Source: Octopus vulgaris (Eukaryota). Taken from it: DNA of 64,000 nt. Under the pieces are notes generated by a model. It was not told where the DNA came from and made no database searches. It saw nothing but the letters and a program-made list of their open reading frames with translations. This document shows positions 5,798 through 62,128 of the stretch, piece after piece. The translations under genes and the position numbers were made by a program. Numbering within the stretch: position 1 is the stretch's first letter; each line of letters opens with the position of its first letter. The stretch is taken from the NCBI GenBank assembly GCA_951406725.2, contig OX597829.1, positions 49,786,001 to 49,850,000 of the forward strand, written 5' to 3'.

Positions 5798-5891
5798 TGT
5801 TCAGTACAATTGTTTCATACGAAGAACAGATTTATTAAAAGCTGCAAAAATTGCAGCAAATACAAGTGTCCCGTATTCATCAGCCAAAACA
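5798..5891 (-). ncRNA. Type I hammerhead ribozyme motif, extended stem II (left arm)
   Basis: Minus strand: CTGATGA core, stem II ATACG/CGTAT with inner GCTGCAA/TTGCAGC hairpin, GAAA, palindromic ACAATTGT, GUA site. Confidence 0.7.
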
Positions 5892-6190
5892 CATATGAGT
5901 TTTCCAAATATCCTAGTGGGGTGAGGCTACACTCATGAAGTATCGAAGAGAGTTCTAGGAAAAGCAAAGTTAGATTGTAAGCAGACTTCAAAAGTTCTCT
6001 AATGATGCACAGTTTTATAAAAGGTTTTTAAAAAAGATTTTAAAAACCTTTTAAAAACCTTTTATAAAACTGTACATCATTAGAAAACATTTTAAATCTG
6101 CTTACAATCTAGCTTTTGCTTTTCATAGAACTCTCTTCGATACTTCATGAGTGTAGCCTCACCCCCTAGGATGTTTGGAAAACTCATATG

Positions 6191-6284
6191 TGTTTTGGCT
6201 GATGAATACGGGACACTTGTATTTGCTGCAATTTTTGCAGCTTTTAATAAATCTGTTCTTCGCATGAAACAATTGTACTGGACA
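6191..6284 (+). ncRNA. Type I hammerhead ribozyme motif, extended stem II (right arm)
   Basis: CTGATGA 6199-6205, GAAA 6266-6269, CAATTG, TA 6276-6277; stem I is rich in G-U pairs. Confidence 0.65.
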
Positions 6285-6739
6285 ACTAATCCATTCTTGT
6301 TGCTTTTATCTTGTTTATAATCACCCCACATTATTTTATGGTTAATACCATAAAGATTTCTGGTCCATCTAAGTTAAGAACCACATTCATGTGAATTCAT
6401 TAGAACTCATTTGAATCTTCATTGTTTTTACTGAAAAAAAAAAAATATATATATATATATATATATATATATATGTATACTCTATTTGAAAGCATATTAT
6501 TCTACCTCTGATATTTGAGTACTCTTTTCCCCCACCTTGTTTCACATTTATGTGTTTACTCCGATATATATATATATATATATATATATATATATATATT
6601 ACGGAGATGTACTCGCATGGCAAGTGATTTGATCTGAGATCGTGTGCTGAAACGAAAACAATTGCAGCGTGGAAGGTGTTTATAAGCCATTTAAGAAACA
6701 CACAAAAACTGTTACATTCACTTCAACATTTAAATTTAA

Positions 6740-6789
6740 TTTGTCAAAATATTTTCGTCGCTAAAATCCGCGACCTGTTCACTGACAAA
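6740..6789 (-). ncRNA. Minimal hammerhead motif with G3-C8 covariant core
   Basis: Minus strand TTTGTCA-GTGAACA-G-GTCGC-GGATTTTA-GCGAC-GAAA-ATAT-TT-TGACAAA: 7-bp stem I, 5-bp stem II, palindromic AATATT stem III. Confidence 0.65.
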
Positions 6790-7289
6790 AATCCGTGCTG
6801 CATCCGAGATGTTGTGTATGTTAGTGTATAAGTATATACATGCATGCACATATGAGTATGTGTAAATATATATATGTATTGTATATGTATGCATTTAAAA
6901 ATCTAAAAAATAAATAGAATAAAATAAAGCAAGTTTGAATTTTAACTGTTGTTCTTGTAATGAGTGTCATATATATGTACACATATATATATATATATAT
7001 ATATATATATATGTGTGTGTGTGTGTGTGTGTGTGTGTGTGTGTATCTGTATGTGTGTATGTATGTATAAATATATATATATATATGTATGTATGTGTAT
7101 GTGTAAGTGTCTATATGATTGTGTGTACTTGTATATATGTATAAGGTTATATGTGCATATATGTATCTAAGAAGTTGTATCCATTCACCGTTAGACAGTG
7201 GTGAGACGGACAAATGCACACACACACATATATATGTGTGTGTGTGTCTATATAAATGAATATGTGTGTATATATATATACAACCTTCA

Positions 7290-59700: not shown

Positions 59701-60891
59701 GCCCTGCTCAACCTGTAGGAAAGGTACAGGTAGAAACTCCATAAGATGCACCCAATGTAAGTTATGGACACATAAGAGGTGCAGCAACATTAAAGGGAAA
59801 TTAACAGATAAGATAGCTTTCATGTGCGGCAGATGCACAGGGACAATAGACACAACAGACACTCAGAAAACAGATTCCATCACACTCCAGGGAGAGAAAC
59901 TAGAAGTAGTTGATAGTTTCCGCTACCTGGGAGACCAAGTTAGTAGCGGAGGTGGATGCACAGAGAGTATCACCACTAGAATACGAATAGCCTGGGCAAA
60001 GTTCAGAAAGCTCCTACCCCTACTGGCAACAAAAGGCCTCTCCCTCAGAGCAAAAGGTAGATTATATGATGCATGTGTGCGAACTGCCATGCTTCACGGT
60101 AATGAAACATGGGCTGTGACTGCAGAAGACATGCGTAGACTTGAAAGAAATGAAGCTAGCATGATCCGCTGGATGTGTAGTGTCAGTGTGCACGCAAAAC
60201 AGAGTGTAAGTATCCTGAGAGAAATGCTGGATATAAGAAGCATCAGATGTGGTGTGCAAGAGCGACGCTTGCGATGGTATGGTCATGTGCTGCGGATGGA
60301 TGAAGAGAGATGTGTGAAGAAGTGCCACTCCCAAACAGTTGAAGGTATCAGGGGGAGAGGTAGACCCAGGAAGACATGGGATGAGGTGGTCAAGCATGAC
60401 CTCAGAGCATTGGGCCTCACTGAGGCAATGGCGAAGGACCGAGATCTCTGGAGATATGCTGTGACTACAAAGACCCGGGCTGCTTTCTGCAGCAATTCCA
60501 CATACCCCCTACCCATTCTAAGTACCCCCCTACCCATTCTAAGTACCCCGGATCCCCAAAGTACCCCGGATCCCCAAAGTACCCTGGATCCCCAAAATAC
60601 CCCAATCCCCAAAGTACCCCGGACCTCGTTGCCCCCGTGCCGCTGACACGTTAAAATGCTCGAATCCGATCGTGACGATGCCGGACCCTCCGGCCCCTGT
60701 GCAGGTGGCACGTAAAAAGCACCCAATCCACTCACGGAGTGGTTGGCGTTAGGAAGGGCATCCAGCCGTAGAAACTCTGCCAGATTCAGACTGGAGCCTG
60801 GAGCGGCCCCTGGCTTCCCAGACCCGGTCAAACCGTCCAACCCGTGCTAGCGCGGAAAGCGGACGTTAAACGATGATGATGATGATGATGA
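56740..60891 (+). mobile_element. RTE-like LINE, essentially full length; APE + RT ORF ~57450-60646 with one frameshift near 58500
   Basis: GTINVGTL, CIQEVRW, SAYAP, GGDFNGH, SQIDFIL; NYRGIKLL, QFGF, DLEKAFD, GVHQGSALSP, YADD, FRYLG; (GAT)n tail; both flanks (TA)n. Confidence 0.95.
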
Positions 60892-60930
60892 TATATATAT
60901 ATATATATATATATATATATATATATATAT

Positions 60931-61925
60931 GTTAATAAAAGAACATGTGCATATATATAAACATATATGTACGTACCTACCTCTACATGTACATATACAC
61001 GCATATATGTGTACAGGACACCAAAAGACGTCGAACACATAGAGAGACGAAAAACAAGACACAAACCAAGGAACAGGACAAGAAAAAAAGGAAGTACAGG
61101 ACAATGAGCACAACGAAAAAACCCCTTCTTCAGTCGCTAAGGTTTCATCTACTCTACGTTTCGAAGGATAAAAGCGAGACGTATCTTCGAAGAAACTTCC
61201 TTCCTGCGAAAAGCAAATCAATTAAAATTCTGAGATCTTTTCGCAGAGGGGTAAAAAATGGTAAAAAACGCAAGACGGTAACGACAGTACAAACATATAA
61301 ACAGTAAAAAAATATATATAAACAGTGGAAAAATAAATATATAACAGTAAAAGACAGGACAAGGAGAACAAGATAAGAAGGGCTATTTACGCCAGACGAA
61401 AAAAGTATTGCAAACGCTGGATTATAGTGGACGACGAGAGAGCAGGAATGTCGACCAGTGGCCTTAGAAGGCGGGCGAGAAAAGACAGGATAGCAGTTAC
61501 GACGGAAGTATCGTCGCAGATGGACGACGGGAATGGGGGAGGAGGAGCAAGAGGAAGGGAGAGAAGAAGGGGAATGGTGCGAGGAGACCATGAAGAATGG
61601 TGAGGGGGAGAGAGAGAATGAAGAATGAGAGAGAGAGGAAGAGACAAGTTAAGTGAGGGAAAAAAGACGAAAAAAGGAATGGAATAGAAAGAAAGAAAGA
61701 TGCAGAGTCGCGTGAGAGTTAATATCAAGGCTAACTTGATAAACAGAACAATCTTACTTAAGAGGGTGCGTGCGTTTAGTCGTATAATATATTAATAAAA
61801 GAACATATGCATATATATAAACATATATGTACGTACCTACCTCTACATGTACATATACACGCATATATGAGTACAGGACACCAAAGGGACGTCGAACACA
61901 TAGAGAGACGAAAAACAAGACACAT
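60931..61925. repeat. Probable PLE terminal region with ~130-bp direct repeat (60931-61062 / 61792-61922)
   Basis: TTAATAAAAGAACAT...GACGAAAAACAAGACACA is duplicated; non-coding. Confidence 0.6.
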
Positions 61926-62093
61926 ATATATATATATATATATATGTATGTATGTGTATATATATATATATGTATGTATATGTATATATAAAGTTAATCC
62001 AAACATGAAAACACAAAGAGAAAACACAACAATGCGAGGACGTGGAACAAATATAGTATTATTGGACGCTCAGGAAGGATGGGAAGAAGGAGG

Positions 62094-62128
62094 GTTTACC
62101 GTTTCGAGCGGAGCTCTTCGTCGGAAAC
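62094..62128 (-). ncRNA. Minimal hammerhead motif, U4C core, cleavage site mutated
   Basis: GTTT-CCGACGA-A-GAGC-TCC-GCTC-GAAA-CG-GT-AAAC. Confidence 0.55.

Follow-up and report, generated by a model that had tools for sequence, protein, structure and literature searches.

Hammerhead motifs with a covarying 3-8 core pair in the terminal repeats of Penelope-like elements of Octopus vulgaris

The stretch of DNA analysed here, called the window, comprises 64,000 nucleotides of Octopus vulgaris (contig OX597829.1, positions 49,786,001 to 49,850,000 of the forward strand), taken from an assembly of 2.8 Gb in 227 contigs (GCA_951406725.2). The window was found to contain many microsatellites and broken retroelements. 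The original prediction had listed ten hammerhead-like motifs; all ten core heptamers were found where it had placed them, and each motif was then read on its own strand. The motifs belong to seven families, namely A (5.8 and 6.2 kb), B (6.75 kb), C (8.4 kb), D (23.6 and 23.8 kb), E (26.7 kb), F (32.9 and 36.9 kb), and G (62.1 kb). Families A, D, and F were present as inverted pairs. The features of the window are given below.

5802..5889, minus strand: family A, first copy of the inverted pair; C3-G8 fold with a long stem II insert and an 8-nt palindromic stem III strand
6193..6280, plus strand: family A, second copy, with one stem II mismatch
6599..6805, minus strand: family B solo terminal repeat (pLTR), starting at the shared 5' boundary, spanning the hammerhead and the initial ~30 ORF codons and ending at a (TA)n run
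6740..6789, minus strand: family B, G3-C8 minimal type I hammerhead fold with a 7-bp stem I, an extra G after A9, a 5-bp stem II, a 6-nt self-complementary stem III strand, and U17
8419..8511, plus strand: family C, decayed hammerhead-like motif with U3.G8 and imperfect stems
23581..23617, minus strand: family D, U3-A8 minimal hammerhead fold with a 3-bp stem I, an extra G, a 5-bp stem II, and a 4-nt palindromic stem III strand
23809..23845, plus strand: family D, inverted partner with one stem II change
26743..26819, plus strand: family E, present in low copy, with a hammerhead-like motif that has decayed (C3-G8)
32910..32960, minus strand: family F, C3-G8 fold with a 6-bp stem I, a 4-bp stem III, and a weak stem II, located ~2.7 kb past an ORF remnant of GIY-YIG-like appearance
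35709..36134, minus strand: 141-aa ORF remnant between the two family F hammerheads, GIY-YIG-like by eye, with no Pfam hit
36929..36979, plus strand: family F, inverted partner
62094..62128, minus strand: family G, U4C minimal hammerhead fold with an extra A and a 4-bp stem II; the stem III palindrome is damaged in this copy
62578..62628, minus strand: family B, second copy, decayed (G5A and stem changes) and absent from the original prediction

Eight of the ten motifs were sound minimal type I hammerhead folds, and the motifs at 8.4 and 26.7 kb look decayed. Stems I and II of the 26.7 kb motif were broken; stem II closed better in two other copies of the family, in which G8 was retained. A family pattern search for a second copy of the 8.4 kb motif matched only the motif itself (one match). 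Its UUGAUGA core had been placed in the covariation set and was removed from it, the U3.G8 combination not being a Watson-Crick pair. The stem III palindrome was lost from the 62.1 kb copy yet retained by family G. Strict descriptors recovered three of the ten motifs (5.8, 6.75, and 23.6 kb). The other seven, which contain one or more damaged pairs or long loops, were read by eye and from family copies.

For comparison with chance, 60 stretches of 10 kb at fixed round coordinates (600 kb) were sampled. The strict descriptor, with free letters at positions 3, 4, and 8, gave 18 matches, whereas a dinucleotide shuffle gave 0.67 on average (three shuffles). All 18 were Watson-Crick at 3-8, with 16 C-G and 2 U-A pairs, seven of the 16 C-G matches being supplied by one tandem array. 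The relaxed descriptor gave 37 matches against 2 per shuffle, comprising 23 C-G, 4 U-A, 2 G-C, 2 doubtful A-U, and 6 mismatched singletons. The matches lie far above the shuffles, so the folds are taken as real, and canonical cores dominate, with C3-G8 in 23 of the 31 Watson-Crick matches of the relaxed set. BLAST counts in the same 600 kb were 4 for family B, 3 for D, 11 for F, and 11 for G, and 0 for A, C, and E. Scaled to the genome with wide margins, these correspond to roughly 19,000 copies of B (from 4 matches), 14,000 of D, 51,000 of F, and 51,000 of G.

The Rfam hammerhead families had no match at the gathering threshold across the window, canonical copies included, and no hammerhead family matched family B (6600-6830) up to an E-value of 10. 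No hammerhead was present among the 150 listed of 352 matches in a broader Rfam listing, all of which were microsatellite noise. The literal CUGANGA consensus (C3, U4, G8) was unmet by families B and D and by most copies of G. The expectation that CUGANGA-based descriptors would miss the variant cores was thus borne out, and Rfam likewise misses every motif of the window. A genome-wide pattern for A3-U8 matched 44 times, compared with 23 times in the control, and revealed no recurring family; this pattern required G or C at two stem II positions, so folds like those of B and D would escape it. A search of PDB sequences gave no match. The silence of Rfam, together with the six non-Watson-Crick and two doubtful A-U matches among the 37 of the relaxed set, could suggest a chance resemblance in AT-rich repeats. 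The excess of 18 strict matches over 0.67 expected, and the placement of the motifs between the 3' UTR and the ORF start exactly as in Penelope hammerheads, speak against it. We regard chance as refuted for families A, B, D, F, and G and as a reading that survives for the 8.4 kb motif; overall it is close to negligible.

Penelope-like elements of the C-terminal EN+ type carry the hammerheads of families B and D in their terminal repeats. The sequence between long inverted pairs of both families includes the 3' end of an ORF encoding a GIY-YIG-type nuclease, and the hammerheads are located between the 3' UTR and the ORF start, as known for Penelope hammerheads. One family B copy contained a stop-free frame of 1025 codons, followed by a ~1 kb CA-rich 3' UTR and the hammerhead. 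The C-terminus of this frame matched Pfam GIY-YIG above the cut-off (E 1.8e-5), and its middle part was reverse transcriptase-like (Atlas score 0.96; RVT_1 on 30% of the cluster members; YVDD by eye). The nearest database protein was also from Octopus vulgaris, with 57% identity. In dozens of family B copies the protein was 92-95% identical and devoid of stops, so the family is considered young. Family D follows a related ORF (40-52% identity in pieces), of which the C-terminal part was found in a frameshifted copy. The pLTR ends of B, D, L185, and L189, the latter two being relatives treated below, translate into similar ORF N-termini. An optional tail was present in family D, inverted pairs occurred, direct repeats were found in L021 and L025, and the targets were mostly (TA)n, in agreement with pLTR anatomy as already described. 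A Cx3Cx2C linker was seen by eye ahead of the nuclease; it may be closer to that of Neptune/Nematis (defined by CX2-5CxxC) than to Poseidon. The ORF link was found for B and D and for none of A, G, or the motifs at 8.4 and 26.7 kb, and family F flanks the GIY-YIG-like remnant seen by eye. Three long copies of family G showed a ~1 kb CA-rich leader and broke off before any ORF. The proposed membership of the dimer-type folds in Penelope-like elements therefore stood for B and D, and for G no ORF was reached.

The core states were conserved within the families. In family B, G3 and C8 were found in 49 of 54 copies and C3-G8 in none (63 regex matches, of which nine strays were dropped), many of the 54 having been picked by their likeness to the window copy. 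In a family B set picked by downstream sequence, 21 of 23 cores contained G3 with a pyrimidine at position 8, of which 19 were C8. Contigs from four public runs of four organisms were placed on a B repeat; no alternative letter reached 3% or more at core positions 3-9, the extra base, or 10.1-10.4, all of which were covered, and loop II varied in the same comparison. Family D contained U3-A8 in all 41 copies (two stray matches dropped). The 3-8 complementarity claimed for the families therefore held in both B and D. A second U3-A8 family is present in the genome (L098, L115, and L126) and needs no extra base. Conservation at the level of copies mostly mirrors recent amplification from a few masters.

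G5, A6, A9, G12, A13, A14, A15.1-U16.1, and H17 were retained in every family consensus. The type I order, with stems I and II around the core, was found, family B being strong (predicted pair probabilities 0.88 for stem I and 1.00 for stem II) and stem I being weak in D (0.26) and G (0.32). Differences in stem II between the families were compensated, as read by eye. The stem III strand was exactly self-complementary in the consensus of B, D, and G and in the relatives L186 and L189, and inexactly so in the L087/L185 family. The extra purine and the tiny palindromic stem III, proposed as shared features of the G3-C8, U3-A8, and U4C versions, do occur in all three families, but an extra base and the palindrome are also common to C3-G8 relatives, and the extra purine was rejected as a hallmark of variant cores.

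One subfamily of G carried C4 in 40 of its 41 copies, and another in one of seven (Fisher p 4e-6). From this split, U4C is a subfamily change without a compensating partner, and it was rejected as a case of covariation. It is a known tolerated change.

The covariation was placed on a tree of related elements. The sister family L185 of the same genome was 51% identical and contained C3-G8, as did a better-kept copy in L087; a further C3-G8 family was found in L028/L157. Relatives with DNA were obtained for five of 25 metagenome candidates (L186-L190), of which L189 contained C3-G8 and L186 contained U3-A8 with an extra U. No hammerhead was seen by eye in the available DNA of L187 and L188, and L190 was without its 3' end. 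None of 50 candidates among viral contigs had DNA. One weak match in prokaryote genomes was left unused. In a protein tree of 19 rows, family B (G3-C8) grouped with D (U3-A8) and L185 (C3-G8) at 99/99, D and L185 being sisters at 98/95, with L189 and L186 outside and the base unresolved. The tree left out four of 15 homologues, D was pieced together from a frameshifted copy with X at the breaks, and five lineages were informative.

The original prediction had held the motifs to come from unrelated families. Seven families do exist overall, but the G3-C8 and U3-A8 families share one clade with a C3-G8 family (99/99), and it is within this clade that the claimed covariation of the 3-8 pair as C-G, G-C, and U-A was confirmed. 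With C3-G8 taken as ancestral, the pair appears to have changed about three times, each time to another Watson-Crick pair. The rough chance of all three changes ending in a Watson-Crick pair is 0.008, the pairs between families being read by eye.

The swapped cores might instead be relics, weakened or inactive, in elements whose amplification does not depend on them, their compensation being luck. U4C reached 40 of the 41 copies in its subfamily without compensation, which indicates that damaged cores can spread, and Naiad elements proliferate without canonical hammerheads (PMC8557442). However, two transversions are needed to reach G3-C8, the three separate changes within a single lineage group all gave Watson-Crick pairs, a second U3-A8 family exists, and the stem II differences between families were also compensated. 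We consider the relic reading quite improbable.

The ends of the insertions were examined in 30 family B copies picked by the sequence downstream of the cut, a set that includes the window copy and five copies sharing flanks. The predicted cut was passed upstream by 27 copies, and the remaining three began 2 to about 25 nt past it; none began at the cut. These ends suggest that the reverse-transcribed RNA template was mostly uncut. They also favour a different reading of the conserved fold, in which its role is structural or lies in protein binding, or it coincides with promoter and splice signals, with no cutting in vivo and with 3-8 covarying only to hold the fold. The isolated stem III duplexes, with predicted energies of -0.2 kcal/mol in B, +2.2 in D, and -1.7 in G, are very weak and point the same way. 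In the anole element, hammerhead mutants left insertion unaffected and RNA-seq gave no reads terminating at the cleavage site (PMC11167929), and low in vitro activity of minimal motifs is described in the passages available of PMC4209133. On the other side, the catalytic set (G5, A6, A9, G12-A14, A15.1-U16.1, and a non-G 17) was retained in every family consensus, and according to the accessible part of PMC8495972 the active conformation includes the 3-8 pair. A role without cutting is in our judgement unlikely, although it is the strongest of the rivals to catalysis.

A second boundary was found 23 nt upstream of position 3, where 18 of the 24 family B copies that reach it stop. Loose contig ends pile up at the same site in two public runs (56 and 41 contigs). 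Copies often carry an extra G there, which accounts for nine of 12 non-templated letters in family B (p 1e-4) and five of nine in family D (p 0.03). A G copied from the cap is familiar from other retroelements. We infer that the stop and the extra G would reflect transcription beginning within the repeat, with the copy extending as far as the RNA cap. Alternatively, the site may be an intron end after a very short first exon. Family B contains a branch-point-like motif, pyrimidines, and AG at this place, and in Drosophila Penelope an intron ends at helix I (PMC4209133, in the part available).

We consider it probable that the minimal type I hammerheads, found in the terminal repeats of several Penelope-like families and including one clade with 3-8 as C-G, G-C, and U-A, were kept by selection for a fold whose predicted cutting is slow, takes place in dimers, and probably involves help from the element protein. 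Transcription of the repeat would begin 12-23 nt ahead of the core. Two motifs, from both repeats of a full-length RNA or from two RNAs, would then join through stem III. A single B, D, or G motif is unable to close this stem, whose strand is self-complementary, and the active molecule would accordingly be dimeric. By the title of a 2017 study of Lunse, Weinberg and Breaker, small hammerheads found with these elements cut as dimers. Position 3 would have to hold position 8 for the 2'-OH of the latter to act, and with 8 held by 3 any Watson-Crick pair would be tolerated, at some cost in rate. Family B is only predicted to cleave itself. Cleavage would take off the capped 5' end just before the start codon, or trim read-through RNA. 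Cutting would be an occasional, regulated event, most reverse-transcribed RNA remaining uncut, and reverse transcription would begin within the first ORF codons and so leave thousands of ~200-bp solo repeats. The weakness of the isolated stem III duplexes is consistent with the anole element, whose cutting is reported to be assisted by protein (PMC11167929).

For metazoan Penelope-like elements, the minimal dimer-forming fold, the U3-A8 pair, the additional base that follows A9, and the stem III palindrome had all been described, as had poor in vitro cutting by minimal hammerheads (Cervera and de la Pena 2014, PMC4209133, as far as the available text goes). The same portions show that their motifs share with the octopus families the type I layout, the extra base between 9 and 10.1, G10.1-C11.1, the palindromic 15.2-16.2, the pLTR location, the many solo copies, and the opposite-strand pairs. 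The U3-A8 motif of Schistosoma mansoni there shares the UUGAAAA core with family D and stands next to a C3-G8 relative, and one U3.G8 row (Saccoglossus) is present. G3-C8, C4, and cephalopods are all absent from the rows of Fig. S3 of PMC4209133, in the part available. The extra base is H in that consensus, as given in the available text, whereas it is mostly G in the octopus clade. Natural U3-A8 covariation and a U4C tolerated in a viroid are described in the accessible passages of Perreault et al. (2011, PMC3088659), in which the motifs are mostly microbial and phage and G3-C8 is not named. The common hammerhead descriptor CYGANGA admits U4C. The proposed radiation of non-canonical ribozymes was therefore overstated: C3-G8 dominates, U3-A8, the extra base, and the palindrome were already published, and U4C is uncompensated and falls within CYGANGA.

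In the anole Poseidon element PAc, cutting is dispensable for insertion in vitro (Frangieh et al. 2024, PMC11167929). PAc has in common with the octopus elements a hammerhead near the ORF start, reverse transcription initiating inside the ORF, an optional tail, and uncut RNA as the main template (PMC11167929). An engineered C3G/G8C double change partly rescues this Penelope hammerhead, which needs protein to cut, whereas in family B the G3-C8 pair is the natural state (PMC11167929). Non-LTR retrozymes also contain type I hammerheads derived from pLTRs, according to the available part of bioRxiv 10.64898/2026.07.22.740005, where they are tandem non-coding units. Families B, D, and G are in contrast dispersed, B and D being ends of coding elements, and the identity of the three as retrozymes was rejected on these grounds.

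Natural G3-C8 was not found in the literature searched, in whose accessible passages engineered mutants occur (PMC3884650, PMC11167929, and PMC8495972); some directly relevant work was unreached, and absence from print is not established. The novelty may lie in a natural, young, high-copy G3-C8 family whose clade includes C3-G8 and U3-A8 members as well. We put forward only tentatively, being nearly evenly divided and leaning slightly against it, the fuller reading that family B would be the first natural case among animal retroelements, high in copy number and recently mobile, of an inverted G3-C8 hammerhead that still cuts, that its clade would hold all three tolerated pairs through selection for catalysis despite a mainly uncut template, and that descriptors would have missed a whole ribozyme layer. 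Hammerhead descriptors should admit any Watson-Crick 3-8 pair, family B alone accounting for about 19,000 copies (with a wide margin). The hammerheads that Penelope-like elements retain cut weakly in vitro and are dispensable for insertion in the sole reconstituted system. Together with its C3-G8 and U3-A8 sisters, the intact G3-C8 element offers a ready-made natural rescue series, and the repeated compensated change of a tertiary pair in one clade is evolutionary evidence for selection on the active fold.

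The octopus window also contained a further Penelope-like ORF and a pyrimidine-rich repeat, and a set of element remnants was recognized by eye in the translations:

53118-56438, + strand: frameshifted Penelope-like ORF of a different lineage, with a weak GIY-YIG match (E 0.021)
60900-61950, - strand: pyrimidine-rich repeat that begins and ends in a direct repeat
9784-10677, 12635-15565 (-), 52527-53123 (-), 57321-60646 (+) and 37650-38075 (+): interrupted RT frames of the LINE type, together with a remnant of a mariner-like transposase

The 3' UTR of the Penelope-like ORF was broken at ~57320 by a LINE containing an endonuclease and an RT, and no hammerhead was seen in this UTR up to the break. 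Hammerhead-like words were scattered in the pyrimidine-rich repeat and gave no full foldable motif. The family D (U3-A8) copy at 23.8 kb was found to adjoin the 3' half of a hammerhead of the decayed C3-G8 family E, present on the opposite strand (window 23770-23812 and 26790-26850).

Further hammerhead motifs were found outside the window:

L091:2307-4513: array of seven identical C3-G8 motifs, spacing ~359 bp, in a 5:2 split between the strands
L098:7652, L098:8152, L115:9959 and L126:9809: second U3-A8 family, devoid of the extra base
L103:8169 and L167:292: two more U4C families

The L091 array could be a non-LTR retrozyme array. The stem II and loop of the second U3-A8 family were similar to those of the L091 motif. 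The C4 nucleotide was also present in three copies of family B (G3-C8).

Four public runs, from four organisms, were compared with the family B repeat at L181:4308-4538. Run X11 contained 11 A>G places against 2 in every other run, and 7 T>C places against 3-5. The A>G excess may reflect A-to-I editing, with inverted repeats as the source of the double-stranded RNA, X11 being only presumed to be RNA; alternatively, it may represent alleles of that organism only.

In three metagenome relatives (L187, L188, and L189), the ORF stop codon was directly followed by repeated, CRE-like palindromic words, which are possible promoter elements. Many solo copies of family B (site L181:4332) and family D (L061-L090) shared a common start just upstream of the hammerhead, where an extra G was often present. 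Together with the extra G, the shared start resembles a cap copied from a transcript that began inside the repeat; alternatively, it could mark an intron end.
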